A stretch of DNA of 15,543 nucleotides, taken from a virus. Positions 1 to 15,543 of this stretch are shown here, piece after piece; within the stretch, counting starts at the first letter, position 1; each line of letters starts with the position of its first letter. The translations under genes and the position numbers were made by a program. The DNA lies in the IMG/VR virus record IMGVR_UViG_3300020548_000004; one strand, 5' to 3'. Under the pieces are notes generated by a model. That model was not told the origin of the DNA and did no database searches. It saw nothing but the letters and a program-made list of their open reading frames with translations.

Positions 1-99
1 AATGATTGAGCGGAGCTCGCGCTTGTCATAGCTGATTGGTAACTCATCTGCCACCGCTACGCTCCTTTAATATATCTATGGCCGTCATTACTTGGTCTA
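1..99. repeat. Terminal repeat copy A, exact 99-nt match to 15445..15543 (circular-assembly overlap)
   Basis: Base-by-base comparison: aatgattgagcggagctcgcgcttgtcatagc...cattacttggtcta occurs at 1..99 and again at 15445..15543, running to the last base of the window. It contains the 5' end (1..54, minus strand) of the CDS annotated at 15031..15498. Confidence 0.95.
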
Positions 100-441
100 T
101 ATCTGTCCAGTAAGGCATTGGAATCCCAGTTGCGATAGCAATCTCGATGATTAGTCGGTTGATGCTTCCGGGCTCGTAACTTTTGGGCTTTCATCTCCAA
201 TCGTCATTTCCTCAACTGTCAGCTCCCAAATCTCTTGGGACTTGGTTGGCTTCCCTGCTGCTTCGCGCTTATACGCAAAGAAAGCAAGATCTAAGAAGTC
301 CGCTTGCTGATAAGCCGAGATATCCTTCATCGAATAAATCGACTTACCAGTTTTGCGTTCCCACTTAGCCCATTCTGGCAAGCCAGCCTGATAAGTAACT
401 GATTCGCCTGAGCTGTATTTAATTGTGATTGATATTTTCAT
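44..441 (-). CDS. Tail assembly chaperone, -1 frameshift product (gpGT-like), join 441..181 then 181..44
   Basis: After slippage on C CCA AAA (187..181), the -1 frame stays open for 45 codons (SYEPGSINRLIIEIAIATGIPMPYWTDIDQVMTAIDILKERSGGR) and stops at TGA 46..44. This fills the otherwise unexplained 96-nt gap between the chaperone stop and the next gene. Predicted product is 87+45 = 132 aa. Confidence 0.55.
151..441 (-). CDS. Tail assembly chaperone, 0-frame product (lambda gpG-like)
   Basis: 96-aa ORF immediately downstream of the putative major tail protein and upstream of the tape measure region. It carries a canonical -1 slippery heptamer near its 3' end. Size and acidic C-terminus fit chaperones. 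Confidence 0.65.
   Translation of the reverse strand: MKISITIKYSSGESVTYQAGLPEWAKWERKTGKSIYSMKDISAYQQADFLDLAFFAYKREAAGKPTKSQEIWELTVEEMTIGDESPKVTSPEASTD
181..187 (-). promoter_or_regulatory. -1 programmed ribosomal frameshift slippery heptamer C CCA AAA
   Basis: Minus-strand sequence gaa agC CCA AAA gtt is in X_XXY_YYZ register with the 0 frame of the 151..441 ORF, 9 codons before its stop. Confidence 0.6.
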
Positions 442-462
442 AGCTCCCGATGCTCCGATCTC

Positions 463-864
463 TTAGGTAAAGGACTCCGCTGGTTGTCCAACAACTGTCA
501 TTGTCCAAGTGTCGGTGAGTGCTCCAGGGGCAGCTCCACCAGCAGTTGGGAAAATTGGCAAAACATTAAATGTAAAAGTTGCGCCTGATGCAGCTGTGAA
601 TACTGTTGAAATTGTCGTATTTGGTGCTGATTCTGCAACGCCCCAAATAATTTCAAATAGAGAGCCAGTCGCTCCCCAATCCTGCAATAGTTCAATTGTG
701 AAAGTCCATTGCTTATCTACAGACTTATAAGCGCGACCATCAAGAGTTTGATAAGTCTCGATAATTGTGTCGCAACTTAGAACGGCTGAAGTTGTTTGAG
801 CGTCAAAGTTATTACCCCCAATGGTAAAACTCACATCGCGCCCAGTTATTACTGTGGTTGGCAT
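463..864 (-). CDS. Major tail protein (small, siphovirus-type)
   Basis: 133-aa ORF with a Thr/Gly/Ala-rich, beta-like composition. It lies after the head-tail joining genes and directly before the frameshifting chaperone. Start ATG at 864. Confidence 0.6.
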   Translation of the reverse strand: MPTTVITGRDVSFTIGGNNFDAQTTSAVLSCDTIIETYQTLDGRAYKSVDKQWTFTIELLQDWGATGSLFEIIWGVAESAPNTTISTVFTAASGATFTFNVLPIFPTAGGAAPGALTDTWTMTVVGQPAESFT

Positions 865-873
865 TTGTATCTC

Positions 874-1266
874 CTATGCGGTTTGCTCGTAGCGGACGCT
901 CAAGCGTATATCTGAAACTAGCAGGGTTGTAGTTCCTACTTCTGTTACCGAAGGTCTTTCGACTATTGATAACTCATACTTGGAAGCGTTAAGCGCTCCA
1001 AGAATACTAATAATTAATTGCTCTAAATTATCAAGAGCAGCAGCGTTGCTAAAATACGCAACGCAAGCAGTTATGGTGTAATTTAACTTAACGCGAGTAG
1101 TTGATTTACCCAAGACTTCAAGCTCCATATAGGGCGAGTCTGGAATGACGATAATTGCTGGGACTATTGGCGCTTCTGGAACTGAATCATAAATATTAGC
1201 GGTGCATCCTGCTAAAGCGGTTTTAAGCGCTCCTCTAACATCTGTGGCAATTGTGCTGGCTGGCAT
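874..1266 (-). CDS. Head-tail joining / tail terminator-like protein
   Basis: 130-aa ORF with a TAATG overlap to the upstream gene at 1266. The N-terminal pattern (V..AL...L....A.IYD..PE....PAIIV) resembles tail completion/neck proteins. Position is between capsid and major tail genes. Confidence 0.45.
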   Translation of the reverse strand: MPASTIATDVRGALKTALAGCTANIYDSVPEAPIVPAIIVIPDSPYMELEVLGKSTTRVKLNYTITACVAYFSNAAALDNLEQLIISILGALNASKYELSIVERPSVTEVGTTTLLVSDIRLSVRYEQTA

Positions 1267-1838
1267 TAGCCCACCATTGTCTCAACATCAAGATAAGGCC
1301 CTAGAAGGCCAGTTACCTTGGCAAGTAAATTCTTAGATAGGCGGTAAGGGGTTACTGCAAAATCTACGCCTTCTATTGATCCACCTGCTGCTGTTCTTGC
1401 TTGGAATATTTCGACTGAGATAGCCAGAATTGCAGCTTCAGCATTGGCATTTCCGACATAGGTTGATAATCCAGAGAGCGCAGCGTTTCCTGCTGGGATG
1501 ATATTTTTCTCCAATATATCTGCATTGGTGATTGCGACTGTGAATACATAATCTGAAATCTCGTCATCGGTTAGTGTGTGAGTGCCATTGAATGGTGATC
1601 CGCAACCAGTAATAATTACGGATTGGCCTTCTGTGAATTCTTGAATTGTTGCGGTTTCAAAGTAAGCGATGTTATTTTCAAGCTTTACTTTGTTGATTTT
1701 GCTTTGAAAAGTGACCAGCATTGGAAGAACTAGGTTCTCTGAAGCATCGACAATATCGTTTAGATAAGCATCGTTATATAGGGATGACGAAACGCCAAGA
1801 ATTGTCCTCAGCTCTGTGGCTGTAACTATCGTTGGCAT
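1266..1838 (-). CDS. Head-tail connector/adaptor-like protein with an internal extra domain
   Basis: 190-aa ORF, the first gene after the capsid gene. SD AAGGA lies 7 nt upstream of ATG 1838. The N-terminus (TATELRTILGV....YNDAYLNDIVDASENLV) resembles gp6-like head-tail connectors, but the ORF is about twice their usual length. Confidence 0.45.
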   Translation of the reverse strand: MPTIVTATELRTILGVSSSLYNDAYLNDIVDASENLVLPMLVTFQSKINKVKLENNIAYFETATIQEFTEGQSVIITGCGSPFNGTHTLTDDEISDYVFTVAITNADILEKNIIPAGNAALSGLSTYVGNANAEAAILAISVEIFQARTAAGGSIEGVDFAVTPYRLSKNLLAKVTGLLGPYLDVETMVG

Positions 1839-1862
1839 TTCGTCATCCTTTCAAGCAGTTAG

Positions 1863-1897
1863 GTGAGCGGCCAGCTCGGGAGCGGACTGGCCGTCAC
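1863..1897 (-). terminator. GC-rich stem-loop after the capsid gene (putative attenuator/terminator or mRNA stabiliser, no U-tract)
   Basis: Arms gtgaGcggccag (1863..1874) and ctggccgtcac (1887..1897) pair over 11 bp with one bulged G and a 12-nt loop. It sits in the 71-nt gap between the capsid stop (1910) and the next start (1838). Confidence 0.4.
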
Positions 1898-1909
1898 TAT
1901 TAGGGATTA

Positions 1910-3463
1910 TCAGCTCTTGTTGAACCAGTTAGCACCTGCGGCAACCTTGGTTGCAAGTGCTCCATAGCCGTAGTAAGCAACCTCAATTTGGCCATTAAGA
2001 GCCACATTGGTTTGCAGACGGAAACGGCTGGATTCATACCAGGTGTAAGCATCTGGATTGATTACGACCATTGAATAATCTCCAAGGCCAGTTGAACCAG
2101 ATCCGAGAGCAGCGCGATCAACATAAAGCTCTAGACCTAACACATTTCCGCGGATGCTTTGTGGTGATACTACTCCACCAGCGTTTTGTGGTTGTGATGC
2201 AGTATAGATAGGGCGTCCAGCATCGTTGTAGGACATAATCTTGCCCCATTGCTCAGGACTTACTACCAAATTGCGAGCGAACCCAAGTGATGCCTTATAA
2301 ACTGCTGCTGCAGCAGTTGATACGAAAGTAAGCAAGCCATCTTTATCTTCTGTGGTTGCTGTTGCATTTAGTGTTCCGTTGTTGGCAATTTCACCAATTA
2401 CGAAAGCATTAGTGGCCTTTGCATAAGCAAACTCCATCTGGCGCACTAGCTCATCAAAGAATACTGGTGAGCTTCGGTCTAGTAACTCTACTGAGAAAGT
2501 CTGGCCGCCAGCATATTTATTTACTGAAACTGATATAAAGCTGTTTTCCATTCCAGTTTCACCAACTGGTTGAGCTTCATTAACATCTGCAACTGTTGGA
2601 ACTACTGTTAGCTTTGGAATCTCGAAAGTCATACCAGCATCAGGTAGGACACCGCGAGAAATTGCATCAATCGTTGGACGATCAGCATTTGAGAGAGGAT
2701 TTACAATCTCTGTTAGCTGACGGGTTGGAATTAAGCCAGCGTTGTTGCTGGTGGTGTCATCTGCTGCCATAACATACTGGCGAGCTGCGTCATCACCGAG
2801 TTTAGCGCGGACGCTATTCTCAAGATATTTTGCCTTGGTGAATTCAAGGCGAGGTGCTGTGTAAAAGGCTGGGCGAGACGCCTCAACCATATTTGCTTTA
2901 GCTGCTTCAACCGCTTCTTCAACGGCAGGAGCAGGAGCGGTAGTGTCAGACACTTGGTCTCCTTCGTTTGGTTTCTCTGAATCAGCGGTTGCTAAATCAG
3001 AATCTTCTTTTGGTGCTTCATTCTCAGAAGCTGCTACTTCGCTTACGCGAGCAGAATCAATTGCAGGATCAGTTACTAGAGATACTTCATCTAGGGTTGC
3101 TGAGGTAATCTGCATAACGCCTTTGTTGTTGGTCCATTCGTTTATCTGAGCTCCAACGCTAAATCCATCGCGCAAGCCTTCAGTTGCTTCAATTAGGGCA
3201 TCTTCTCCAGCCATAGTGTTGGCAATCTTGAAAGTAGCTTCAATGCCAGACTTAGTTACATTGTGAGAGACCATCTTGCCGATTGGGCGAGTGCGGTCGT
3301 GCTCAAGAAGCAACTTAACTGGCTTCATTTCAATTGAATCCGCTGCAAATACTGTCGGGCCAACTGAAGTATTGCCTTGCTCGTTCCAAGTTACGATAGT
3401 TCCAGTTATGGTGCGCTTAATTGTGTCGGCAGCTGTAACTGCCATTGGCATATTAACCTTCAT
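1910..3463 (-). CDS. Prohead serine protease (HK97/S78-like) fused to HK97-fold major capsid protein
   Basis: 517-aa single ORF. The N-terminal ~150 aa carry protease-like motifs (LLLEHDRTRPIGKM, GLRDGFSVG). An acidic/Ala-Pro-rich linker follows (ENEAPKEDSDLATADSEKPNEGDQVSDTTAPAPAVEE), then a ~330-aa capsid-like region. It lies directly after portal. Alternative starts at 3451 (GAAGG SD, 1 nt after the portal stop) and 3445. Confidence 0.85.
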   Translation of the reverse strand: MKVNMPMAVTAADTIKRTITGTIVTWNEQGNTSVGPTVFAADSIEMKPVKLLLEHDRTRPIGKMVSHNVTKSGIEATFKIANTMAGEDALIEATEGLRDGFSVGAQINEWTNNKGVMQITSATLDEVSLVTDPAIDSARVSEVAASENEAPKEDSDLATADSEKPNEGDQVSDTTAPAPAVEEAVEAAKANMVEASRPAFYTAPRLEFTKAKYLENSVRAKLGDDAARQYVMAADDTTSNNAGLIPTRQLTEIVNPLSNADRPTIDAISRGVLPDAGMTFEIPKLTVVPTVADVNEAQPVGETGMENSFISVSVNKYAGGQTFSVELLDRSSPVFFDELVRQMEFAYAKATNAFVIGEIANNGTLNATATTEDKDGLLTFVSTAAAAVYKASLGFARNLVVSPEQWGKIMSYNDAGRPIYTASQPQNAGGVVSPQSIRGNVLGLELYVDRAALGSGSTGLGDYSMVVINPDAYTWYESSRFRLQTNVALNGQIEVAYYGYGALATKVAAGANWFNKS

Positions 3464-4580
3464 TTGGGATTAAATCCTCTTCTCGCTGAATTTGCTCAAC
3501 GCTCATCGCGCCAATGCGGTTTAGAATTTCATAAACTTGAGCTCTCTCTAATGCGTTACCGCGTAAGAAGTCATCAAGTGCAAAGCGCGTCATTACTGGA
3601 TTAGGTGTGAAGTCCGGCAATGATAGGCGTTCCTCAATTGCCTTAAGTATTGGGCGAAGTGAGAAATCTACTAATGAGCGCCGCTCGGACACCGCGTTTG
3701 AGTAAGTCATAGAAGTCGTTTCGGCGCTCAAGAAGTAGGCAGGTATTCCACAGGCCCGAGCTAATTCTAGTGCTACATATTGACGCGCCTCTGCAAGTTG
3801 CATTGATTTAGGATCAAAACCAAATTGCTGTAATTCTACATCTGCATTTAAAAAAGCTGTTGAGCGAGATTGGCGAGCAGTTTTCCAGGCAGTTAGCAAG
3901 GATGAAATTCTTTCGGCAGTTAAATTAGTGCCATTTGATTTCAATACCATTGAAGGTGCTGGCTCTTTAGCATAATTAACTGCTGCGTTCTCAAGATAAA
4001 CTGCTGCAGCTACTGTCTTACCAGCGCGATGCAAGAAGCCTTCATCGCCGCCATCAAATCTTATAATTGAACCTACGCCACTAAGCGGAACTGCTTTACC
4101 ATCAACTTTGTAGCCAGTAATTGTGGTATTGAGGAAATCTGTATCAACTGTAACGCGGTCTGGACTTACGCGAGTCCAAGCTCTTACGCGTCCGCCATCG
4201 GTTGCGCTATACATCTCAAGCACTTGACCATAACCAGCGCCATATAGCCAGATATCTTCTGCAAGCCAGCAATAGATTACGAATCCTGCAACTCTTGGGT
4301 CTGGCTGATTGATTACTCTGTGTGGATCAACATACTGGCCAGTTATGCGATTGAAAGTTGTTAAAGGTAATGAGCCAATAGTTCCGCATATGATATTGCG
4401 AGCTCTTGCAACGGATGGAACGCTCATTGCTAATTGGCGAGTGGTATTAGTTGCACCGCCGAGAATGTTATAAACTGAATCTGAAATCTGAACTGGTGTT
4501 AAAGCTGCTTGAACATCAGTAACGGCAATAGGGCGCTTGGCCTCAACTGCTGGAAATAGGAAATCTCTTATAGCACCCAT
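3453..4580 (-). CDS. Portal protein (HK97-family-like)
   Basis: 375-aa ORF between large terminase and protease-capsid. Size and sequence character fit portal proteins. There is no obvious SD before ATG 4580. Confidence 0.8.
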   Translation of the reverse strand: MGAIRDFLFPAVEAKRPIAVTDVQAALTPVQISDSVYNILGGATNTTRQLAMSVPSVARARNIICGTIGSLPLTTFNRITGQYVDPHRVINQPDPRVAGFVIYCWLAEDIWLYGAGYGQVLEMYSATDGGRVRAWTRVSPDRVTVDTDFLNTTITGYKVDGKAVPLSGVGSIIRFDGGDEGFLHRAGKTVAAAVYLENAAVNYAKEPAPSMVLKSNGTNLTAERISSLLTAWKTARQSRSTAFLNADVELQQFGFDPKSMQLAEARQYVALELARACGIPAYFLSAETTSMTYSNAVSERRSLVDFSLRPILKAIEERLSLPDFTPNPVMTRFALDDFLRGNALERAQVYEILNRIGAMSVEQIQREEDLIPNEG

Positions 4581-4604: not shown

Positions 4605-6086
4605 TTACACTATTTGGATATCAACGCTACTTTCAGCCATAGTCGCATAGTGTGTTGCTAAGGCCGATGCAATTGCTCCGCAGATTGTCGTATTACTTAC
4701 TTTCCGACCCATTACCCAGCCGCCGTCACCGAAAGGGAGTTTGACGGCGGATAGGCATTGTTTGGTTAGCTCTTCCTGTCCCGAGTGAGCTAACCGCTGA
4801 GATGAAATTGCTCCTAGTAATTCATCGCAGCTTTGGGCATAATCAAGACCATCTATTGGCTCAACCCTAATTCCTGCAGGAGCTAATCGCGCAGCTACTG
4901 CCGAGGCGGTTCTGGCTGAATAGGCAACCAGCTGAACTGGATACTTGCGCACCCATTCTGCTACATCATTAGCCATTGCTTTATCGTCCAGATTGGCAGG
5001 GTTATGCCAAGTCTGAAGCAATATGACTTGGAACTTATCGCCCTCAAGTCTTTGACTAGCAACTAGCGCCGCTTCTTTTCTACTCGGGCTTAAATCAATA
5101 GCCAGCCAAGTATCAGCCTCAGGGTTGAGTCGAAGTCCCTCAACTTTGCAACTCTCCCATTGTGAAGCACTTATGACGGGATTTATAACATTTACCCATT
5201 GGGTCAAAACCTCTGTGCGCACAATATCCTCAGGGTCATTTAGAACCGCCCTAATATTATCTGGATGAATTGTTAATCCAAGTGAAGGGTTAGCTTGAGA
5301 TACACCTAGCCAAAAATCTGCAGAATTATCAAATTTAATATCTATTGGAGCTGAATATTCAAACCAACCAATATCATCAACCGCTCCATAAATAGCAGCG
5401 TAGGCTCTTTCCTTCAATCTATTTAAGACTATTGAGTGTTGATCTCCAGCTGAAGTATAGATAAAAGTTTGTGGATTTGGACTTGCCATTTGCGTATATC
5501 GCAAAGCAGACCACACATCATCATCCTTAAAGTCTCTTACTTCGTCCATATGCACACAATTTGGCGCGGCGATGCCTCTACCAGCCGAGTTATTGGCTCG
5601 GACAATATAGCGGCGGCCTTCAGTAAATTGCAGCTCCTGAAATCCCTTACTTTCCAGCTTCTTAGTAAATTGAGCAGCTAGCATTGGATTCTGTTCAATA
5701 ATTTCATAGATTTTGTAGAATAGTTCTGCTGAAGTAGTTAGCTTATGGGCCGTATGAACTTGCAACTTTTCTTTCAATACATAAATTCTAAATAGAATAT
5801 TAAGCGCCATAAAGGTCGATTTGCCATTTTGTCGGCCAACTAGAAGGCAGACGATTGGGTGAGCCCATCGGCCATCGGGTTTGTATTTAAGTGAATGATG
5901 AGCCAGCCATTGTTGCCAAGGCATCAAAGTAAAGCCGATTTCCTCGCAGAATTTAATCATTTGCTCGCCATATGAGGGGTAATCATTGAGTTTAGTGTGG
6001 ATTCTGGGTTCTGGCACACCTCGGTAAGCCGATTCGTCCCTAACTCGGACAATCTCACCCAATTCAGCCAAAGCGATTTCTTTCAT
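4605..6086 (-). CDS. terL: Terminase large subunit
   Basis: 493 aa. Walker A LLVGRQNGKST, Walker B-like CVHMDEV, and a C-terminal nuclease-sized domain. ATGA overlap with the upstream HNH gene at 6083..6086. Confidence 0.9.
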   Translation of the reverse strand: MKEIALAELGEIVRVRDESAYRGVPEPRIHTKLNDYPSYGEQMIKFCEEIGFTLMPWQQWLAHHSLKYKPDGRWAHPIVCLLVGRQNGKSTFMALNILFRIYVLKEKLQVHTAHKLTTSAELFYKIYEIIEQNPMLAAQFTKKLESKGFQELQFTEGRRYIVRANNSAGRGIAAPNCVHMDEVRDFKDDDVWSALRYTQMASPNPQTFIYTSAGDQHSIVLNRLKERAYAAIYGAVDDIGWFEYSAPIDIKFDNSADFWLGVSQANPSLGLTIHPDNIRAVLNDPEDIVRTEVLTQWVNVINPVISASQWESCKVEGLRLNPEADTWLAIDLSPSRKEAALVASQRLEGDKFQVILLQTWHNPANLDDKAMANDVAEWVRKYPVQLVAYSARTASAVAARLAPAGIRVEPIDGLDYAQSCDELLGAISSQRLAHSGQEELTKQCLSAVKLPFGDGGWVMGRKVSNTTICGAIASALATHYATMAESSVDIQIV

Positions 6087-6421
6087 TCCGTATAGTGCCT
6101 CGCCGAGCCATTTTCAGGGAAAATCTTCCCAATGGGGGTCGTGGGTCTGCTTCCGCGCTCAAAAAAGGTAGGGGTCATACGATCGCGCTTAGAACTATTG
6201 CATTGAGTGCAGCAAGCCACCATATTAGAAGCTTCATCAGTTCCACCTTTGCTGATAGGTATTAGATGATCAACTGTAGTCGCTTCTAGCCCGCAATAGT
6301 GGCAAGTATTGTAATCTCTTTGAAGCACTTGAAGTCTTGTCTTTTGGTAGTAGCTGGAGTTATAGCGTCTGCTCAATGCCAGCCCTTCGTCTCTAAGTGT
6401 TGCAAGGCATCGCAAGCGCAT
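6083..6421 (-). CDS. HNH endonuclease (terminase-associated)
   Basis: 112 aa with CHYCG...VDHLIPISKGG...N...CCTQCNSSK, i.e. HNH plus a CxxC zinc-finger pattern. Translationally coupled to terL. Confidence 0.9.
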   Translation of the reverse strand: MRLRCLATLRDEGLALSRRYNSSYYQKTRLQVLQRDYNTCHYCGLEATTVDHLIPISKGGTDEASNMVACCTQCNSSKRDRMTPTFFERGSRPTTPIGKIFPENGSARHYTE

Positions 6422-6819
6422 TTATATCTATGTCTTATGTATTTAATATGTGCATCTATTTGCTGCTTAGGGCTAAGGTCTCTATACCAAGTAGAACGCA
6501 TCTGACCAAGGCCATAATGAGAGCCGTTACGAGCCTTTGGATTCCATCTACTCTCTTTATGAATTAACCAGTTATAACATTGAAACTCTGGCCAATCTAA
6601 TTTGTTATAAGCATAAAGCTTTAGATTCATATCTGCTTTTGATGGGCTTGGATTTAATATTAATAGTAAAGCAGCTATAACGCCTATCGCTATCAAGCGA
6701 AGGCAATGGCCCCCCTCAACCTCTGTTACAGGGCCAGCTGCGCGCCCGCACTGTGGCGAGAGTGTATCAGCGTTGTCAAGTAGGCTGACATAAGTGCTGT
6801 TCAGAGCCATATCAACCAT
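6373..6819 (-). CDS. Membrane-anchored/secreted lytic transglycosylase-like protein (SLT/Apf C-terminal-like domain)
   Basis: 148 aa with a hydrophobic segment LRLIAIGVIAALLLIL followed by NPSPSKA. The C-terminal domain EFQCYNWLIHKESRWNPKARNGSHYGLGQ...QQIDAHIKYIRHRYKCACDALQHLETKGWH matches the pattern QCL..L..KES.WN..A.N.S.AYG..Q...Q....YI..RYG....AW.H....GWY known from Gram-positive muralytic proteins. Confidence 0.65.
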   Translation of the reverse strand: MVDMALNSTYVSLLDNADTLSPQCGRAAGPVTEVEGGHCLRLIAIGVIAALLLILNPSPSKADMNLKLYAYNKLDWPEFQCYNWLIHKESRWNPKARNGSHYGLGQMRSTWYRDLSPKQQIDAHIKYIRHRYKCACDALQHLETKGWH

Positions 6820-6884: not shown

Positions 6885-7535
6885 TTAATCATTTAGATTA
6901 CTCTCTAACTGAATACATATTTCTTCACCCAATGCGTATGGAATCATTGACCTAGCTTGCTTGCCTAATCTTTGATTGCCTGTAGTAGTCCCCCTAGGAG
7001 ACTGCTCGTGACAAGGAGAGCCAGGGCGGCACATTTGTCTAGCTTGCCATTTCGGAACTATCCCCCAAAGGTCAGTAGGTTTCATTCTAAAATCACCATA
7101 TTGGCAATAAGTAATAGTTCTTCTAGGCAGTTCTTGCATAAACTCTAACTTCCTGAGCATCCCTCTAGGATTCTCAATTAGCCAGCCTAACTTCGGTTTT
7201 ATCTCATCTATTAAACTAATAGCTTTTTTAACCATTGCTATACCATCATAAACTCTGTCATCTTTAACTGTTAAAACTCCATTTACATAATGCCAATAAA
7301 TAGGGCAACTAGCTACGCTGAAAGTAGTGCAAGGTGGAGAAGCCCAAATGAAGTCTGGATGACCATATTTAACTATCATTTCAGCAGCTTGTAGCTCTAG
7401 CACATTTCTTTCATCTGCCTCAAATTTAGGCTGTAACTCGACCTTGACTACTTTATGGCCTCTATCCTCAAATGCTTTAGTTGCTGATCCTGTACCAGCG
7501 AAGAAGTCATAGATAATCAACCTTCTAACTCCCAT
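6885..7535 (-). CDS. DNA (cytosine-5) methyltransferase, compact form
   Basis: 216 aa. Motif I DFFAGTGS, motif IV ASPPCTTFS (catalytic Pro-Cys), motif VI LIENPRG, and a C-terminal RSMIPYALGEEI resembling motif X. There is very little sequence available for a target-recognition domain. Confidence 0.85.
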   Translation of the reverse strand: MGVRRLIIYDFFAGTGSATKAFEDRGHKVVKVELQPKFEADERNVLELQAAEMIVKYGHPDFIWASPPCTTFSVASCPIYWHYVNGVLTVKDDRVYDGIAMVKKAISLIDEIKPKLGWLIENPRGMLRKLEFMQELPRRTITYCQYGDFRMKPTDLWGIVPKWQARQMCRPGSPCHEQSPRGTTTGNQRLGKQARSMIPYALGEEICIQLESNLND

Positions 7536-8463: not shown

Positions 8464-9047
8464 TTCTGAAAGACCCAATGCCCATCTGAACCAATACGCA
8501 TCCACTTAGCAGGATGACCAGATTTAGGTGTTGGACATACCCAGCCTCTATATTCTTTGCCTTCTTTAGTGCCAGTCTTTAGCACCATTGGTCCATCGCC
8601 ACCAGAGCAAAGCGGTATCTCATCAATTATTTCAGCACCTAATTGATTTGCTATCTCGCTTACATCCCAAACAATTGGCTCAGGATCATTAGGGCGTTGC
8701 TCTTTTATGAATTCCGCAAGAGCTGGCTTAGTCGTTTCAATTGCCTTCTTTGGGCTCGGTTTAGTCTTAGCGAAGTATCCAGCGAGGTTAAGTGCGCGTC
8801 CCAACGATCCAGTTTCCGCAAGCTCGAGTGCATATTGCTTGGATTTAGACTCACTGGATAAACCTGTAGTCCAAGGATGTAAGTCAGCTTCAGTGCGATA
8901 TAACTCAGTTTTAATGATATAGACATCACAATTAGCCACAAGCGACTCCGCCAAGATATGAGTCTTGATTCTATAATCTGGATAAGCATTTATAAACTCC
9001 TTTAATCGGTCTTGAACTGAAACATAATCATCAAGGTAATTCGACAT
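8460..9047 (-). CDS. Putative Rad52/Sak-like single-strand annealing protein with a C-terminal extension
   Basis: 195 aa with SD GGGAGAGAG before ATG 9047. VSVQDRLKEF...SKSKQYALELAETGSLGRALNLAGYFA resembles the Rad52-family signature (K..A..A.T.A.KRAL...G). The C-terminal ~50 aa (CSGGDGPMVLKTGTKEGKEYRGWVCP) look like a degenerate zinc-ribbon. Confidence 0.5.
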   Translation of the reverse strand: MSNYLDDYVSVQDRLKEFINAYPDYRIKTHILAESLVANCDVYIIKTELYRTEADLHPWTTGLSSESKSKQYALELAETGSLGRALNLAGYFAKTKPSPKKAIETTKPALAEFIKEQRPNDPEPIVWDVSEIANQLGAEIIDEIPLCSGGDGPMVLKTGTKEGKEYRGWVCPTPKSGHPAKWMRIGSDGHWVFQK

Positions 9048-9315
9048 TTAACTTCTCTCTCCCTGCGAAATTACTTATCGCATCGTCTAACTGTTCTTTT
9101 AATGAATAAAATGTGCCATCTGGCCAGTTCTGTGCTTCATCGGCGCAAGGCTGGCAATAAAACCTGACCTGTGCTTTGCGAAGCGGTGTCTCGCTTTGGA
9201 CTTTCCAAACTGCTGGAGTCATAGCTCTTAAATCCCAGCCATTCTTATTTGTTCCCCAGCGATATTTGCAATAGTCGCAGTATTGATTTTGATTATGATT
9301 GCGAGTCAGACTCAA
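9031..9315 (-). CDS. Small zinc-ribbon protein (CDYC...CQPC), function unknown
   Basis: Only the C-terminal ~94 codons of the 184-aa track ORF look coding. TTG at 9315 is preceded by GGGA 5 nt upstream and lies 23 nt before the stop of the 9293..9703 gene. The exact start is uncertain. Confidence 0.45.
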   Translation of the reverse strand: MSLTRNHNQNQYCDYCKYRWGTNKNGWDLRAMTPAVWKVQSETPLRKAQVRFYCQPCADEAQNWPDGTFYSLKEQLDDAISNFAGREKLNVELP

Positions 9316-9703
9316 TGTCGTCCCAATCTTCTGGAGTAGAAAATCTGCATCGACCCAAGATAGCGGCGTATCCAATGAGATCGAGATACGAATCCTCGCG
9401 CTCTGGACTTTCCACCATTCTTGAGAGTTTTGTTGCAATAGCAATAAGTGCCAATTCAGATGGGTCTCTGAGCTGAATACCGAGTGCTCTCGCGATTTTG
9501 TAAATGCGTAAAAAATTGTGCCTCGGGTCTCCATACTCAATCCCTCGGTCGAATAAGGTAGCACCAGCTTCTTCAAGCCATTCACTTAAGGACTTCTGTG
9601 AATCGGACACTTGACCTTCCTCTCTTATAACCTTCATTAAAGGCTTTGGCTTTAGCTGAGTTCCAAAGACTCCAGATATAAAGGCCGATAAATGGAACTC
9701 CAA
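9293..9703 (-). CDS. Hypothetical all-alpha protein (possibly MazG-like/nucleotide-pyrophosphohydrolase-related fold)
   Basis: 136 aa from TTG 9703 with AGGGA 6 nt upstream; an internal ATG at 9637 lacks an SD. The segment RGIEYGDPRHNFLRIYKIARALGIQL...IAIATKLSRM resembles small phage all-alpha NTP-PPase-like domains. Low functional confidence. Confidence 0.45.
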   Translation of the reverse strand: MEFHLSAFISGVFGTQLKPKPLMKVIREEGQVSDSQKSLSEWLEEAGATLFDRGIEYGDPRHNFLRIYKIARALGIQLRDPSELALIAIATKLSRMVESPEREDSYLDLIGYAAILGRCRFSTPEDWDDIESDSQS

Positions 9704-9735
9704 TAATTATCCCTATTACTGCTTCATCAGATAAA

Positions 9736-9936
9736 TTAGGCAACATCTGCATTTACCCCATATTTATCAAGCCAGTATGCAGAGATTTCAGCCTTAGATA
9801 AACGGCCTCGCAGCTGCTTCTTACCCATTCGCTCTTTAGCGAATCGTCTTATTATTGATCCCTTAACCCAATTTGTCTCATCAGTCCAAGCACCAGCTTG
9901 CGAGTCAAATCGAATTAGAGCTACTTTATTTATCAT
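9736..9936 (-). CDS. Hypothetical protein
   Basis: 66-aa ORF with SD AAGGGAG before ATG 9936. No motif recognised. Confidence 0.5.
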   Translation of the reverse strand: MINKVALIRFDSQAGAWTDETNWVKGSIIRRFAKERMGKKQLRGRLSKAEISAYWLDKYGVNADVA

Positions 9937-9999: not shown

Positions 10000-10329
10000 T
10001 TAGACAAGTAATAGCTCGGCGAGTCGAATATCTAAAAATCCGCATAGCCTCTCGCTGTGGGCTTTGTTGCTGAAATCGGTGGTAACTGGAAGGCTCTTCA
10101 AAACCCAGTCAGGCTCGATTAGAGCCCCTAAATCAAACTGGTATATACCTTTAGGTGTGGCATTGATATAAAGGGTCTTAGCGCCCGTTCTAGCCCTTAT
10201 ATCGGCCAGATAATCCCACTTCTTCTTCTCAATAAGTAAGCGGTCATAGTGCGTTCTACGGCATTTAAGCTCGACATAGGAATCGCTGGTAATCCCATCT
10301 GCTCGGTCGGTCGCTGATAGGGGCGTCAA
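10000..10329 (-). CDS. Putative PD-(D/E)xK-type nuclease
   Basis: 109 aa from TTG 10329. D..D....D.YVELK matches a D...ExK nuclease-like arrangement. The frame remains open and protein-like for 19 more codons upstream, up to an ATT at 10383 (see findings). Confidence 0.4.
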   Translation of the reverse strand: MTPLSATDRADGITSDSYVELKCRRTHYDRLLIEKKKWDYLADIRARTGAKTLYINATPKGIYQFDLGALIEPDWVLKSLPVTTDFSNKAHSERLCGFLDIRLAELLLV

Positions 10330-10382: not shown

Positions 10383-10643
10383 TTAGTTATCTTCCTCGCC
10401 ATCTTCCCAACCAATTTTCTTTATTGGGTCATCGGCGGGCACTATCCAATCAGGATAAGAGCTACGATCCATAGCGAAAGCCAGCGAAGTGCCTTCATCC
10501 ATACCAGCTCTGCGACAAGCTTTATAAACTTCATTGGCAGCAATAGCCCAGAAATCAAGCTTTGTTAATGGGGTTTCTTTAATAGTCCTGCGTCTCTTAG
10601 GACGCTTGACTGGCTTCTTATTTACGCGCTTTCGCGTTGCCAT
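10383..10643 (-). CDS. Hypothetical protein with highly basic N-terminus and acidic C-terminus
   Basis: 86 aa with SD AGGGG 7 nt before ATG 10643. N-terminus ATRKRVNKKPVKRPKRRR, C-terminus WEDGEEDN. Confidence 0.55.
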   Translation of the reverse strand: MATRKRVNKKPVKRPKRRRTIKETPLTKLDFWAIAANEVYKACRRAGMDEGTSLAFAMDRSSYPDWIVPADDPIKKIGWEDGEEDN

Positions 10644-10809
10644 TTCTGACCCCTTTCGCTAGGGCCAATTCTAGCTGAGACTCCATTTTATCAAGGCGCG
10701 ACACAATAGGAATATTCTCTAATTTGATTATGTAGCGAAGGCCAGCAATTAGAAGGGCAATTGATCCTAAGACTGATGCAACTAAAGTAGCCAATTCAGC
10801 TGCAACCAT
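10618..10809 (-). CDS. Single-pass membrane protein of the lysis cassette (holin-like/lysis accessory)
   Basis: 63 aa with N-terminal TM LATLVASVLGSIALLIAGL, a helical middle and a basic tail. TAATG coupling to the upstream holin at 10809. Confidence 0.55.
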   Translation of the reverse strand: MVAAELATLVASVLGSIALLIAGLRYIIKLENIPIVSRLDKMESQLELALAKGVRNGNAKARK

Positions 10810-10991
10810 TACCGGACTTTGCCGTAACGCTCATAATTTGGATTGAGCCAGTTAATGATGCTAGGCAAGACTGACACTAGAGCGGCATTTGCAATTGCAT
10901 TGACATCTAGGCCGACTGCTAGATAAGTCGCTAGGGCTGTCGCTAGGAATGTCTTTGCCCAGCTTTCGGCCATCTTCTTTAGGTCGCTCAT
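10809..10991 (-). CDS. Holin, two transmembrane segments
   Basis: I favour ATG 10991 (MSDLKKMAESW...) because a perfect AAGGAG lies 6 nt upstream; the track start at 11024 has none. Two hydrophobic segments (TFLATALATYLAVGL, AIANAALVSVLPSII). Lies directly after the endolysin. Confidence 0.6.
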   Translation of the reverse strand: MSDLKKMAESWAKTFLATALATYLAVGLDVNAIANAALVSVLPSIINWLNPNYERYGKVR

Positions 10992-11400
10992 TAGATTCTC
11001 CTTCAAGGTTAAACCATTTGCCATCTGTGTCTCCCAAGCTAGTAAATGATATATGGAAGTGACTACGATGCGGATTAGGGCCTGAGTATTTACGCCGCTT
11101 CCACCCCAGTATTGGGCTCATAATCTTGCCATCATAGATAATATATTTGATGCGCTTATCCCCTTTTTTGGCGCACTTACGAATCTTCTCAACCAGCGCA
11201 TAAGCTTCTTCTTTATGTGCCGATAGATCAGAATCAATATCTATAGCTCTAACGATTCCATCTCTTGGTATATGGTCAGAAGTGCCTTTCGCAATGTGCC
11301 GAGCATCAGCAATCCAGCCGTCAGACTTCCTATCGCGATCAGGATAATCGTCATCGATTTGCTCCCGTAATTGGACACCAGCTGCGCATAATCTAGACAT
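10861..11400 (-). CDS. Endolysin, LAS/M15-like zinc peptidase domain
   Basis: 179 aa. RKSDGWIADARH...TSDHIPRDGIVRAIDID...YSGPNPHRSHFHISF fits the His/Asp...HxH metal-ligand pattern of cell-wall peptidase domains seen in actinophage lysins. It lies immediately upstream of the holin. The last ~45 codons overlap the holin gene in another frame. Confidence 0.6.
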   Translation of the reverse strand: MSRLCAAGVQLREQIDDDYPDRDRKSDGWIADARHIAKGTSDHIPRDGIVRAIDIDSDLSAHKEEAYALVEKIRKCAKKGDKRIKYIIYDGKIMSPILGWKRRKYSGPNPHRSHFHISFTSLGDTDGKWFNLEGESNERPKEDGRKLGKDIPSDSPSDLSSSRPRCQCNCKCRSSVSLA

Positions 11401-11428: not shown

Positions 11429-11677
11429 TTATGCTAGAAGCAGTTTAGCCTCATCCTCAGTAATGCCTAAACGCTGCAAAAGTGCGGTTCTTGCCTTTTC
11501 GTTAGTTTCTTGAACTGCTGCTTGATTATATTTGTATAATTTAAATGCTTCTGCAAGTTCGCTTTTTGTGGGTTTTGATTCAGTATTTGTCCAATATGTA
11601 ATTTCATCACCTGTCACCACCCAGCCAGTTTTAAATCCTAACTCATTTAAGGCAATGCTGATTTCTTCGTTTGTCAT
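11429..11677 (-). CDS. Hypothetical protein between tail fibre and lysis genes
   Basis: 82-aa ORF, TAATG-coupled to the tail fibre gene at 11677. No confident motif. Confidence 0.5.
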   Translation of the reverse strand: MTNEEISIALNELGFKTGWVVTGDEITYWTNTESKPTKSELAEAFKLYKYNQAAVQETNEKARTALLQRLGITEDEAKLLLA

Positions 11678-12348
11678 TATGCACCTATCTCTAAAAGAAT
11701 TATTGATGAAACGGAATCTGTAAATTGCACAAATGCTTGCGATTCATTTTGATCTGCCGCAAATTGTGTTTTATAGGTTGTTGCTGAAGTTGTTGCTGGA
11801 CTATGCAAATGTGCATACGAAACAGCAAAGTTTTGCTTTACTTGTGTGTCGGTTGTGCCCGCTAAACGCATAAAAGTTTCAACAACAGTTGAGCCAACCA
11901 ATAATCTTAAATTACATCCTTGATATGTATTAGTTGAAGTTCTACCAACTCCATTTTGTGATATCAAAACTAAAACTTTGCTACTTGCTGAAGAAGGCGT
12001 TATTGTAGCCGTCAAAGTTGTGTCGGCATAAGTTGTTGTTGAGTTTGTTGTTGCTGTTGAAGTATATGCCGCAATAACCTGCAACACCTTGCCACCACCA
12101 GCAGGAGTTGCCCAGCTTGGAACTCCTGCTGCAACTGTTAGGACTTGCCCAGCTGACCCAATAGGCAAAGCAGTATTTACATTGGCAGTTGCTGATCTAT
12201 AAGCAAGTGCGCCAGTAGTTGTCTGTGGGTTTAAGTTCTTTGTCGTTGTATCGATTGAACTTCCCAATGTGCGAATTGCAGCTGCGCCATCCTTGACGAG
12301 ATCAGTATCGTCAGGAGTGTCCCAGCCGTAGTTAGTAGTCGTTGCCAT
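11677..12348 (-). CDS. Tail fibre / receptor-binding minor tail protein
   Basis: 223 aa. The N-terminus NYGWDTPDDTDLVKDGAAAIRTLGSSID and LPIGSAGQVLTVAAGVPSWATP match motifs recurrent in phage tail fibres. The C-terminal region is Thr/Ser-rich and beta-like. Confidence 0.65.
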   Translation of the reverse strand: MATTTNYGWDTPDDTDLVKDGAAAIRTLGSSIDTTTKNLNPQTTTGALAYRSATANVNTALPIGSAGQVLTVAAGVPSWATPAGGGKVLQVIAAYTSTATTNSTTTYADTTLTATITPSSASSKVLVLISQNGVGRTSTNTYQGCNLRLLVGSTVVETFMRLAGTTDTQVKQNFAVSYAHLHSPATTSATTYKTQFAADQNESQAFVQFTDSVSSIILLEIGA

Positions 12349-12356
12349 TTATTCTC

Positions 12357-13601
12357 CTATGCAACTATTGTAGCGTTAAGCCAGTCCAAAGTAGGGCTGA
12401 TTGTATTCCAAGTTTCAGTCGCTGGGACTGAGTTCCATCTGAACGCCTGAAGGCTGAAAGCGATAGGCGAGACATTTAGAGTCAAGTTAAGCTGATTCAG
12501 GCTGGCTGTCCAAGTCCAACCTTCTACGAAACCTTGAAATTCTCCACCGACCATATTGGCTGGCAAGTTAATGATATTAAGCGGTTGGCCCATAAATACG
12601 CCAAGAAGGTTATCTCGGTCTGAATTGTCGATTTCACCGCTGGCTATCGGGAAGGTTATCTGCCTTAAGGCAAATTGAGGGTAAGCGCGGATTAGTAGAT
12701 AGAAGGCTGCTTGATCCTCGGCATCGTTCTGATTTCGCAAAGTAGTTCTAATAGTCGTTGCCAATTGGCCATAAAGAGCTATTGAAGCTGCATCTTCATC
12801 GCTCACTTCGGCATTGCCTACGCCGTATCCAACTGTAATGGCATTTCGGACATCGCCAGCTCGCTTAACGATGGAAAGGGCTGGGCCGATGGCGTGATTG
12901 CCATCTAAATCGACATAGCCATTAGTTGAAAGATATTGGCTTCTGTGTGTTGAGTCAGCATACCCAATTCTGCCCTGAGCATCTTCATATAAATACCCAA
13001 GTCCGCTGGTCGCAAATCGAGAAGCTAGGTTATAAACTGTGTCATTTAAATTGCTTTCAGAGTGCAAGTCATAATCACCCGGAGTATCTATTTCACCTAA
13101 TCCGCTATTTTCAGCATCTTCCCATTGGACTGCTGCGTCGTAGTCATTCCAAGTTTCGGCTGCTGGCACTTCGTTCCATTGGTCAAATAAAACTGTGCTT
13201 AATAAAGTTTCAATTCTGTCGCCATCAAATTGATGAGCAAAGTTGCCTGTATAAACCGCTCTGGCTAAACGAGCCAATGCTCCTACTGCCACTATTTTAA
13301 TTTGTTGGCTGGTGGCCGTTGATCCTGAAGTTTGGACTGTAATGCCTAAATCGGTTATAAAGCCGCCAAAGAGATTGACATAATCGCCATTAGAGTCTTG
13401 GACTTCTATTGTTACTGCGTCATTTACTTCATATGGAACTGCAGCTTCAGCTGTCTCTATAAGACTTAAATTGCAGTAACCAGCAATCGGCTGCTGATAA
13501 ATGTCGGTGCGACCCGAGGTAATAGTTAAGCCGCTTAGGGTTGCGCTAGTAACTGGAACGCCATCAACCTTAACTCTATAGACTGGATTCCAGAGGGTCA
13601 T
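12357..13601 (-). CDS. Minor tail protein (distal tail protein-like)
   Basis: 414 aa with an ATGA overlap to the tape measure stop at 13598..13601. It occupies the first position after the tape measure, as Dit-type proteins do. Confidence 0.55.
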   Translation of the reverse strand: MTLWNPVYRVKVDGVPVTSATLSGLTITSGRTDIYQQPIAGYCNLSLIETAEAAVPYEVNDAVTIEVQDSNGDYVNLFGGFITDLGITVQTSGSTATSQQIKIVAVGALARLARAVYTGNFAHQFDGDRIETLLSTVLFDQWNEVPAAETWNDYDAAVQWEDAENSGLGEIDTPGDYDLHSESNLNDTVYNLASRFATSGLGYLYEDAQGRIGYADSTHRSQYLSTNGYVDLDGNHAIGPALSIVKRAGDVRNAITVGYGVGNAEVSDEDAASIALYGQLATTIRTTLRNQNDAEDQAAFYLLIRAYPQFALRQITFPIASGEIDNSDRDNLLGVFMGQPLNIINLPANMVGGEFQGFVEGWTWTASLNQLNLTLNVSPIAFSLQAFRWNSVPATETWNTISPTLDWLNATIVA

Positions 13602-15031
13602 TGCGCTACTAGACCGCCAAGTATTGCGCCCCCACCGCCGTTGCGAGCGTTGCTAGTGTTTAATGCTAATACTACGGCCCGAGTAAATCCTTCTTCATCT
13701 ATTGCGCTTGGGGCATTGACATTGACAATAACATTTCCGCGTTCTTCGCCGCGTCTAGCTGCTGCTACATCAAAGCTAGCAGGGATGGCATTACCGCTTG
13801 GAACTATCGTTGATGGGGCAGTAACCAATGATGGTGACGATACGGAAGGACTAACGACATTAGGTTTTGCAGGTGTGACTGGAGTAATTGTTACTGATGG
13901 CGTAGTTGTGACCTTTGGAGTTATAACGACACCAGATGGCAAAGACGCGGCTGCAACTGTGTTTGACGCTTTTGTGCCTCCATCAAAATCTAGTTTAGGA
14001 ATAGTTTTAATATCAGGGCCAGATTTGATTAAATTTAATCCTCGGATTACTGCATTTATGCCAGTTATTGCTGCATTTATAATTGGCTCAAGAGCGTTTA
14101 AGGCAAAGGCTACTGCGCTGACAATCCCAGAAGCAACTTTGCCAATAATTTTAATAGTATCCGCAAAACCACCAGCCAAGAATGGAACTAAAGTATCTTT
14201 GGCAAAATTGTATAATCCCCTAAAAGTGTCCTCATTTTCTTTAACCGATTTAATAACTGGATCGATAGCATTTTTCTTGAAGCGCTCAAAAGCTGGGATG
14301 GCAGTATCTGTTATGAAAGTCAGCAGCTTCTCAATGATAGGCAATAAAGCTGTTCCGACACTTTCCTTCGCTTCATCAAATGTGACTTTTAATCTTGCAA
14401 TTCTGCCCTCAAAAGTATTAGCTTGGACTGTAGCTGCGCCACCAAAGGTATCGGCTAATTGTTTAACTGTTCCTTCTAATCCTAGGGTCTTTATTTCGGC
14501 AGCAGATAAACCAACGCCTAAACGAGAAAGAGCGCCAGTATTGCCTTCATAAGCTTTACCTAAGGCATTGGATACCGATTCAACACTTTTGCCAGTAGCA
14601 GCTGATATGTCTAAGGCTAGGTTTAATAAATCTTGGGACTCAGTTACTGATCCTGTGGCAGTTGCTAAGCGTTGAAGCGCTGGGCGTAATTCGTCATCAG
14701 CAACGCCTGTAGCTAGAGAGGTTTTAAGTATTTGTTCCTCAACAGCAGAAATTTGGGCTTCGGTGGCCCCAGTAACATTCTTTAAAGCATTGGCTAGACG
14801 ATTTTGAGCTGCCTCATCTTCGATGGCTGCTTTAACGCCATCAACTGCTAACTTGACTGCATAGGCCGCTGCCGCTGCCGCTGCCGCTGCGAATGCGGCT
14901 GCTGCAACCTTGCCAAACTTTTCTAACTTACCGCCAAAACCTTCAACCTCTTTGGAGCCAGTATCAAGATTTTTCTTGAGATTATCTACATCAGCAAGAA
15001 TCGAGAGCTTGAGCGTTCTACTGCCAGCCAT
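13598..15031 (-). CDS. Tail tape measure protein
   Basis: 477 aa. Ala/Gly/Leu-rich helical repeats, a hydrophobic poly-Ala segment, a Pro/Thr/Ser-rich C-terminal part, and position after the chaperone region. Confidence 0.85.
   Translation of the reverse strand: MAGSRTLKLSILADVDNLKKNLDTGSKEVEGFGGKLEKFGKVAAAAFAAAAAAAAAYAVKLAVDGVKAAIEDEAAQNRLANALKNVTGATEAQISAVEEQILKTSLATGVADDELRPALQRLATATGSVTESQDLLNLALDISAATGKSVESVSNALGKAYEGNTGALSRLGVGLSAAEIKTLGLEGTVKQLADTFGGAATVQANTFEGRIARLKVTFDEAKESVGTALLPIIEKLLTFITDTAIPAFERFKKNAIDPVIKSVKENEDTFRGLYNFAKDTLVPFLAGGFADTIKIIGKVASGIVSAVAFALNALEPIINAAITGINAVIRGLNLIKSGPDIKTIPKLDFDGGTKASNTVAAASLPSGVVITPKVTTTPSVTITPVTPAKPNVVSPSVSSPSLVTAPSTIVPSGNAIPASFDVAAARRGEERGNVIVNVNAPSAIDEEGFTRAVVLALNTSNARNGGGGAILGGLVAQ
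14865..14888. repeat. Hexanucleotide microsatellite (GCCGCT)x4 inside the tape measure gene
   Basis: The plus strand reads gccgct four times in tandem. It encodes part of the poly-Ala run AAAFAAAAAAAAAYA. Confidence 0.9.
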
Positions 15032-15498
15032 TACTTATCCCATTCTTTCAATATCTTGGAAAATGCTTCTTGCCATTTCTTAATTAATTCAGGCTGAATC
15101 TTACGAAGGGTTGGGTAGATAAAGTAGCCAGCGTTTCCGCGACCTTTCGTTGGTGTTCTTCTTGGGAACTGACGCAAGCGATTAGATCCAAATTCATAAC
15201 CCGCCCAGAGTTTTTGTGTGCTACCGCCACCAGAAAAGCGCTGACTTGCAAAGCCGTAAGAGAACTCTCCGATTTTGGAACTGGCCGAGACTTTAACGCC
15301 TGTTGCAATTCTTCTAACTGCTTCTTGACCAAAAGTCCTTGTGAGTGCATAGGCTTTGATTTCATTTGCTGCATAAGTAGCCAGCGCGCTAGATTCTGAT
15401 TTAGCTTGGCTAACGGCTTCATCATCCATCGCTTTGAACGCGGTAATGATTGAGCGGAGCTCGCGCTTGTCATAGCTGATTGGTAACTCATCTGCCAC
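15031..15498 (-). CDS. HK97 gp10-like tail-completion/neck family protein in an atypical position
   Basis: 155 aa, GTG start at 15498 with a perfect AAGGAG 7 nt upstream, and TAATG coupling to the tape measure gene at 15031. The C-terminal half WAGYEFGSNRLRQFP...GYFIYPTLRKIQPELIKKW resembles the gp10-family pattern (Y...vEfG....pa.PFl.pA). Confidence 0.45.
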   Translation of the reverse strand: MADELPISYDKRELRSIITAFKAMDDEAVSQAKSESSALATYAANEIKAYALTRTFGQEAVRRIATGVKVSASSKIGEFSYGFASQRFSGGGSTQKLWAGYEFGSNRLRQFPRRTPTKGRGNAGYFIYPTLRKIQPELIKKWQEAFSKILKEWDK

Positions 15499-15543
15499 CG
15501 CTACGCTCCTTTAATATATCTATGGCCGTCATTACTTGGTCTA
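15445..15543. repeat. Terminal repeat copy B, exact 99-nt match to 1..99
   Basis: Same comparison as copy A. The repeat ends exactly at the window end, which is typical of a fixed-length k-mer overlap in a circular contig. Confidence 0.95.

Follow-up and report, generated by a model that had tools for sequence, protein, structure and literature searches.

The stretch examined here, IMG/VR virus record IMGVR_UViG_3300020548_000004, comprises 15,543 nucleotides (hereafter the window, meaning the whole stretch of DNA analyzed). This work concerns the phage genome that it holds, the 99-bp repeat at its two extremities and the physical ends of the packaged DNA. Genes were assigned by profile searches against PHROGs, Pfam and NCBIfam, by tblastn and by conservation counts over the loci of relatives. 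Coding frames were checked by the periodicity of substitutions at third codon positions among relatives, which confirmed the coding frames and corrected three mechanical calls of open reading frames (ORFs). The resulting map contains 28 ORFs and one frameshift product, all on the minus strand, and is 97.8% coding; the initial annotation, made from the sequence alone, was right about the single strand and slightly low in its count of about 27 genes. Along the minus strand, an HNH endonuclease gene is followed by those for the large terminase (TerL), portal, protease-capsid, two neck proteins, major tail protein and tail chaperone, and then by the junction where the window's ends meet. Past the junction lie the genes for a 155-amino-acid (aa) protein, the tape measure, two tail-tip proteins and a lysin and holin-like pair, and the remainder consists of about a dozen small early genes, an accessory methyltransferase and a transglycosylase-like protein. 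We consider it very likely that the window holds the entire genome, of 15,444 bp, of a siphovirus-like, lytic phage of the HK97 type with unique cohesive (cos) ends, and that the 99-bp duplication is an assembler overlap. The features at the junction repeat and at the probable cos site are the following.

1..99, no strand: assembly overlap copy 1, single-copy in the real genome, identical to 15445-15543.
15445..15543, no strand: assembly overlap copy 2, redundant; its removal gives the 15,444-bp unit.
6108..6133, minus strand: probable left physical end with the conserved cos-flank motif ATTGGGAAGATTTTCCCTGAAAATGG; 6133 is the first base.
6134..6144, minus strand: putative 11-nt 3' cohesive overhang, 5'-CCACGACCCCC.
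6145..6160, minus strand: probable right physical end (...GCAGAC); 6145 is the last double-stranded base.
6083..6421, minus strand: HNH endonuclease, 112 aa (PHROG HNH families; PF01844, PF14279), spanning the probable cos cut.
4605..6086, minus strand: large terminase, 493 aa (phrog_9, E = 1e-66), starting 47 nt from the left end and overlapping the HNH stop (ATGA).

Exact comparison confirmed that positions 1-99 are identical to 15445-15543 up to the last base of the window, as had been reported, 99 bp being the longest exact terminal overlap. Since the identity is exact, terminal and reaches the last base, chance is excluded as its origin. The unit that remains after removal of one copy has a length of 15,444 bp and a G+C content of 44%. 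For the closure test, a 700-nt query was built over the closed junction with one copy of the 99-mer and aligned to the contigs of relatives. It aligned in one piece and collinearly to 74 stretches, the junction-crossing alignments having identities of at most 98% and no gaps, and the homologue of the 99-mer was single-copy in all 72 relative loci that carry it. The closure at 15444/1 is genuine and the genome is collinear. In one relative, L010, the circle closes elsewhere in the genome, by an overlap of 127 bp, and yields a unit of 15,579 bp. Both 99 and 127 are standard de Bruijn k values (MEGAHIT and SPAdes defaults). Given the single copy in relatives, the closure of L010 elsewhere and these k values, the 99-bp repeat arose in the assembly, as the overlap of a closed graph, and is not a packaging terminal repeat, as the initial annotation had proposed. 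In practical terms, circular closure by a k-mer overlap is uninformative on packaging type.

If the packaged DNA truly carried a short direct repeat at its termini, as in T7, that repeat would likewise be exact and terminal, and direct terminal repeats of 589-1584 bp are found in some Arthrobacter phages (PMC5513430). However, the repeat cuts two coding sequences, in line with an earlier remark that it interrupts a gene: the 99-mer holds the 3' end of the chaperone extension and the GTG start of the next gene. Furthermore, relatives carry one copy and run through it, and just one of 402 mapped contig ends (see below) falls within 50 nt of the window's own junction, the ends of the family mapping elsewhere. 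Together with the standard k-mer length of the repeat and the 127-bp closure of L010 at another place, these observations leave a packaged terminal repeat of 99 bp with a probability close to negligible.

The first hint of physical ends was that many contigs retrieved by the capsid search begin about 2,670 nt before the capsid gene. Approximately 20 contigs, drawn from 20 metagenome ids and encoding a TerL with 65-90% identity to that of the window, share their first base. This base, the A of ATTGGGAAGATTTTCCCTGAAAATGG, precedes the TerL start by 47 nt and is equivalent to position 6133 on the minus strand. Among 213 unique contigs, the cos-flank motif stands at contig offset 0 in 44 of its 165 occurrences. 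As a control, every contig end of 287 unique related contigs was mapped to the window; 40 of the 402 ends that could be mapped lie exactly at 6133, the second most frequent position is 6145, and elsewhere no position gathers more than two. The right ends come from nine sequence-distinct contigs with seven different flanking sequences, all of which stop at 6145 (...AC). The 11 nt between the two types of end, 5'-CCACGACCCCC (6144-6134), are missing from left-end and right-end contigs alike. End-polishing removes 3' overhangs and so leaves a gap, while filled-in 5' overhangs would make the ends overlap. The gap in both end types therefore fits polished 3' cohesive ends and does not fit filled-in 5' overhangs. 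On this pattern of contig ends, the virion DNA most likely has unique, non-permuted 3' cohesive ends at 6133/6145.

The gap also matches in length the overhang of cluster AN Arthrobacter phages, in which an 11-base 3' extension, CCCGCGCCACC, was determined experimentally (PMC5679792). Strand chemistry is not readable from contigs, and it is by this analogy, together with the fit to polished ends, that the overhang of the window is taken to be 3' and 11 nt long. More generally, contig-end pile-ups over public assemblies can reveal cos sites without reads.

The same pile-ups at 6133 and 6145, with the 11-nt gap between them, speak against the initial proposal of a circular or circularly permuted molecule. 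Headful (pac) packaging of a permuted, terminally redundant genome would agree with the assembly of the contig as a circle and with the internal position of 103 of the 165 cos-motif occurrences in the contigs of relatives, but replicative or annealed DNA should yield internal motifs as well. A permuted genome would have no fixed ends, whereas 40 of 402 ends fall at one base and the opposite end lies 11 nt away. An HNH gene adjacent to TerL is typical of cos systems, gp74 of HK97 having a role in cos cleavage. In addition, the cluster AN relatives have defined 3' cohesive ends (PMC5679792), and we thus regard headful packaging as very unlikely.

Another explanation is that the pile-up marks a break of the assembly graph where, in mixed strains, conserved sequence gives way to variable sequence, the true termini lying at some other, unplaced position. 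It is consistent with the motif being almost invariant while its flanks vary, and with the frequency of mixed strains, the terminal overlap of contig L330, for instance, being 95% identical. Yet graph breaks leave overlaps of k-1 that depend on k and strain and not a constant gap of 11 nt. Moreover, the same end base recurs in at least 20 samples, in lineages with TerL 65-90% identical to that of the window, right ends with seven different flanks share one stop position, and the 11 nt equal the overhang length of cluster AN (PMC5679792). An artefact of this kind appears unlikely, with a small chance of being correct.

With unique cos ends, the course of events could be as follows. Reads from joined cos ends, present in circular or concatemeric replicative DNA, would let the assembly graph close on itself, and the assembler would then have cut the circle at an arbitrary place, leaving the 99-bp overlap. 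In the phage, TerL and the adjacent HNH endonuclease may cut concatemers at the cos site. The packaged linear molecule would start at 6133 (ATTGGGAAG...), run down the minus strand through the junction and end at 6145 (...GCAGAC), its ends carrying the 11-nt 3' overhangs (CCACGACCCCC).

Several points weigh against the reading of a complete genome with unique cos ends. The termini are deduced from contig ends of relatives and not from the reads of this genome. Right-end contigs are far fewer than left-end ones (9-12 vs. 40-44), a shortage that we tentatively attribute to retrieval and virus-detection bias. No small terminase was recognized in any protein of the window with PHROGs, Pfam or NCBIfam, nor is there a gene in the 47 nt between the left end and TerL. 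The end chemistry of cluster AN serves as an analogy across a distant homology (24-40% identity in five proteins). Finally, the host assignment considered below rests on one bin and on GC content, more distant relatives occurring in bins of unrelated taxa.

The probable cos cut falls within the HNH ORF. Position 6145 lies in codon 93 and the left end starts from codon 97, so that codons 1-93 would be carried by the right end and codons 97-112 by the left end. The gene is directly upstream of TerL, with the end of its ORF overlapping the TerL start. In almost all of the 117 versions that span cos, the tail of the HNH ORF, ...RPTTP|IGKIFPENGS.(R/V/K)HY..., is free of stops as far as TerL despite differing downstream DNA, and the third-position bias in this tail is weak but in the right frame. 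It appears to us an even chance that the cut lies inside the HNH ORF of a phage encoding no small terminase, the HNH gene being split in every virion and rebuilt when the ends are joined, and TerL being transcribed only over the joined cos. If so, the expression of packaging genes would depend on genome topology, and a highly abundant freshwater phage group would display extreme compaction, with a cis-acting packaging site within a coding sequence. Our literature search found no report of wrap-around genes over cos.

The assertion that the window holds a complete small siphovirus-like phage genome is supported by the collinear closure and by the gene set. In IMG/VR, at least 599 related stretches were found with the capsid fusion as query, at least 257 with the HNH protein and at least 543 with a tail protein, while homologues of the 155-aa protein form 4,814 clusters at 90% identity in public data. 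This uncultured freshwater lineage is very abundant. The cos/HNH spacing in contigs of relatives longer than one unit amounts to 15,098, 15,135, 15,155, 15,521 and 15,639 bp, and the 15,444 bp of the window fall within this range of 15,098-15,639 bp. All conserved genes of the family are present in the window.

It may be asked whether the window is an autonomous virus at all, and not a plasmid, an integrated or defective prophage, a satellite or a cluster resembling a gene-transfer agent, given its very small size and the lack of recognizable replication genes and small terminase. However, a full packaging, head, tail and lysis set is present, the physical ends seen in contigs imply packaged linear DNA, and plaques are formed by cultured phages of cluster AN, whose gene content is the same (PMC5679792). 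No integrase was found in any related contig, and no partition genes were found. Host flanks were absent from more than 280 related contigs and from contigs of metagenome-assembled genomes (MAGs). The initial annotation had named flanking host sequence in longer assemblies as evidence that would speak against its reading; this was looked for in longer contigs and none was found. Matches in genome collections are short, unintegrated contigs in freshwater MAG bins. Contigs of 26 kb to 2 Mb that matched a 16-mer anchor were considered as prophages and rejected as chance matches without a homologous protein. A non-autonomous element is thus highly improbable, and the lifestyle of the phage is presumably lytic.

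Some IMG/VR contigs exceed one genome unit, so that their lengths overstate genome size. These include L330 (16,017 bp; 496-bp terminal overlap at the identity given above), 3300011116_000840 (15,930 bp; 775-bp exact terminal overlap) and 3300035670_001115 (26,243 bp; approximately 1.7 genome units).

Comparison with deposited phages by megablast with the whole genome gave no match, and the exact capsid protein is not on record in public assemblies. In the capsid tblastn search, cluster AN phages (15,319-15,630 bp) were the only cultured phages with a relationship over the protease domain. Identity to proteins of cluster AN is 24% for TerL, 31% for the portal, 40% for the protease, 28% for the major tail protein and 31% for the HNH protein, five of the 28 proteins being similar. 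Cluster AN (genus Decurrovirus; Decurro, KT355471, and Maggie) likewise has genomes of 15.3-15.6 kb, in which nearly all of the approximately 26 genes share one strand. The gene order is also alike, namely TerL, portal, protease-capsid, adaptors, major tail protein, two small genes and tape measure, followed by tail tip, lysis and small early genes, with HNH last before cos. Neither cluster AN nor the window has replication genes or an integrase (PMC5679792; PMC5513430). Further shared traits are a T-run followed by CCC near the left end and a C-rich 11-nt 3' overhang, putative in the window, with GAC before it listed as part of the likeness. The overhang of Decurro stands between ...GGACAC and CCGATCTTTTTTCCCC, that of the window between ...GCAGAC and ATTGGGAAGATTTTCCC. 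Local alignment of the two cos regions returned a short T-run match only; the resemblance of the overhangs in length and composition was noted by inspection.

The differences are also considerable. The GC content is 44% in the window and 60% in cluster AN, and the sources are freshwater and soil, respectively. In Decurro, TerL is preceded by three small genes at the left end, and 16 nt separate the HNH stop from the cut; in the window, 47 nt lie between the end and TerL, and the probable cut interrupts the HNH ORF. The tape measure has 477 aa in the window and 665 aa in cluster AN, and the window has a clear -1 frameshift site, while none was found in cluster AN (PMC5679792). Scaled to the 98-nm tail of cluster AN (PMC5679792), the shorter tape measure would predict a tail of approximately 70 nm. 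The window thus works like a cluster AN phage, the architecture being matched, without being a member of the cluster, as shown by the absence of a megablast match and by its distant proteins.

HNH-assisted cos packaging of the HK97 type is similar in having an HNH gene by the terminase at the genome end, a portal, an S78 protease and an HK97-fold capsid. The window differs from it in lacking an identified small terminase, in the fusion of protease and capsid protein, in an overhang that would be 3' and of 11 nt, and in a probable cut inside the HNH ORF. Two further groups are likened to the window by description only. Rhodococcus phage RRH1, a minimal siphovirus of 14,270 bp with a fused protease-capsid, sets the lower size limit (PMC5513430); it is 1.2 kb smaller than the window and absent from the capsid tblastn matches. 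The freshwater miniphages of Kavagutti et al. (2019) show a peak at about 15 kb and include 155 complete genomes below 15 kb, some of them predicted actinophages (PMC6802176). These were defined as smaller than 15 kb and called actinophages via whiB, while the window has 15.44 kb and no whiB was recognized in it.

It had been suggested that the genome is near the lower size limit, that cultured tailed phages this small are rare and that it would make a useful minimal model. The genome is indeed near the limit but not at it, as RRH1 has 14.27 kb. Rarity was overstated: 109 cultured actinophages under 20 kb are known (bioRxiv 10.1101/2022.02.05.479200), more than 20 cluster AN phages of 15.3-15.6 kb have been described (PMC5513430; PMC5679792) and the freshwater peak at about 15 kb is published. 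The same applies to its special value as a model, since phages of like size and layout are already known. The window neither widens the size range known for tailed phages nor represents a new kind of system. Its value is that of a complete, clean reference for an abundant freshwater lineage, offering a validated gene map, a frameshift site and probable physical ends.

Related contigs come from freshwater MAG projects, including those on Lac Pavin and Lake Mendota, and the only close match, a fragment of 96% identity, belongs to a Ca. Nanopelagicaceae MAG bin. In tblastn with TerL, all cultured phages matched were actinophages, at less than 30% identity. Cultured acI phages have a GC content of 44.7% and their host 46.5% (PMC10202952). 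Based on the TerL matches, the 44% GC close to that of acI phages and the one MAG bin, the host is probably a low-GC Actinobacterium such as acI/Ca. Nanopelagicales. The bins of contigs L388-L395 are assigned to Rhodoferax, Saprospiraceae, Caulobacter, Terrimicrobiaceae and Nanopelagicaceae, and the phage contigs are evidently mis-binned.

At the junction itself, the tail chaperone gene, a frameshift extension and the gene of the 155-aa protein meet.

151..441, minus strand: tail assembly chaperone, G-like, 96 aa, between major tail protein and tape measure; kept in 124 loci.
44..187, minus strand: slippery heptamer C.CCA.AAA (187-181) and -1 extension (181-44), giving with the chaperone a 132-aa G-T-like fusion.
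15031..15498, minus strand: conserved 155-aa protein between chaperone and tape measure, with coding periodicity; none of its homologous clusters is named.

The heptamer stands in the X.XXY.YYZ register and the -1 frame runs for 45 codons to a stop at 44-46. The extension was in the -1 frame in all 51 distinct relatives examined, with peptide identity down to 53%, and in 47 of them a search for slippery sites met the heptamer first. The third-codon-position substitution bias past the chaperone also follows the -1 frame. A mechanically called TTG ORF at 57-200, considered as the frameshift extension, is in the +1 frame and without third-position bias, and was discarded as spurious. The extension overlaps the GTG start of the 155-aa gene (position 54, equal to 15498, with AAGGAG before it). 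For the 155-aa protein, no family or fold match was obtained in PHROGs, Pfam, NCBIfam, PDB sequences or Foldseek (best E = 4.4), and its AlphaFold model has a mean predicted local distance difference test score (pLDDT) of 58. The label 'gp10-like', given to this gene initially, finds no support in any of these searches or in the model. The position of a conserved gene in the gap between a frameshifted chaperone and the tape measure is unusual.

The remaining head and tail genes are listed below in the order in which they follow TerL.

3453..4580, minus strand: portal protein, 375 aa (phrog_12, E = 9e-40; PF04860, E = 8e-36).
1910..3463, minus strand: fused prohead protease (S78) and HK97-type major capsid protein, 517 aa (phrog_2263, E = 9e-72, and phrog_80; PF04586 and PF25209).
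1266..1838, minus strand: head-tail connector candidate, 190 aa, by position only; kept in 146 loci, no profile match.
874..1266, minus strand: neck or tail-completion candidate, 130 aa (phrog_22278 'minor tail protein', E = 1.5e-6).
463..864, minus strand: major tail protein, 133 aa (phrog_4574, E = 1.6e-5), resembling that of Decurro at the identity given above.
13598..15031, minus strand: tape measure protein, 477 aa (nine PHROG tape-measure families).
12357..13601, minus strand: tail-tip protein, 414 aa, by position probably distal tail or hub (phrog_5313; at least 543 related IMG/VR stretches).
11677..12348, minus strand: receptor-binding candidate, 223 aa, with variable C-terminal part; relatives align over residues 1-82 only.
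11429..11677, minus strand: accessory ORF, 82 aa, in 5 loci only.

The protease part of the capsid fusion is the one that is 40% identical to the cluster AN 'major capsid and protease fusion protein'. TerL, portal and an HK97-fold capsid with prohead protease are all present, which places the phage among siphovirus-like Caudoviricetes, and the tail is of the non-contractile type, with a major tail protein, a tape measure and a chaperone -1 frameshift, no protein having a PHROG match to sheath or baseplate. Pfam and NCBIfam gave no match for most tail and early proteins. The C-terminal two thirds of the 223-aa tail protein are hypervariable, as expected of a receptor-binding tip.

Lysis, early and accessory genes occupy the rest of the map.

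10861..11400, minus strand: putative endolysin, conserved part 11025-11400 (phrog_32486; peptidase-like H/D/HxH pattern by eye only); its tail overlaps the next gene.
10809..11024, minus strand: holin-like protein, 71 aa, with two hydrophobic segments in the sequence and coding periodicity in its own frame.
10618..10809, minus strand: small membrane protein by sequence, 63 aa, possibly of the lysis cassette; kept in 99 loci.
10383..10643, minus strand: basic protein, 86 aa; kept in 102 loci.
10000..10329, minus strand: 109-aa ORF with non-ATG start, a real coding sequence by periodicity; kept in 104 loci.
9736..9936, minus strand: early protein, 66 aa; kept in 107 loci.
9582..9752, minus strand: membrane protein, 56 aa; periodicity favors its own frame in 9586-9703.
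9293..9610, minus strand: DUF6378 protein (PF19905, E = 2.5e-12; periodicity), with a likely GTG start at 9610 giving 105 aa.
9031..9315, minus strand: Cys-rich protein of about 94 aa, start uncertain; periodicity supports the frame only downstream of 9293.
8460..9047, minus strand: early protein, 195 aa (phrog_11717, phrog_23738).
8116..8505, minus strand: Cys-rich protein, 129 aa; kept in 135 loci.
7944..8138, minus strand: 64-aa protein, a candidate for a DNA-binding role; kept in 138 loci.
7517..7996, minus strand: 159-aa protein, weakly similar to Mu Gam-like end-protection proteins (phrog_5168, E = 4e-14; phrog_2205, E = 1.4e-6).
6885..7535, minus strand: DNA methyltransferase, 216 aa, accessory (phrog_757, E = 9e-29), in 8 loci only.
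6373..6819, minus strand: transglycosylase-like protein, 148 aa, with an N-terminal hydrophobic segment (phrog_12661, phrog_35836).

In the 164-nt overlap of the lysin ORF and the holin-like gene (10861-11024), substitution periodicity revealed coding constraint in the holin-like frame only, and the tail of the lysin ORF is probably unconstrained read-on. Similarly, in 9293-9585 the DUF6378 frame alone is constrained. The methyltransferase and the 82-aa ORF are accessory, while their neighbor genes occur in more than 100 related loci. As for the 'full set' of genes that had been announced, the head, tail, lysis and early modules are there; neither a small terminase nor replication genes were recognizable among the window proteins.

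In silico scans of the window for tRNA genes and Rfam families returned none, and a scan for sigma-70 promoters and terminators gave fewer sites than in shuffled sequences and was uninformative. The GC-skew profile has no clear origin. A repeat search found no iterons or origin-like arrays, its sole feature being a hairpin at 1782-1848. This inverted repeat of 24 nt, 83% complementary with a 19-nt spacer, spans the start of the gene that follows the capsid gene and adjoins a non-coding gap of 71 nt (1839-1909); it could be involved in transcript processing or attenuation.

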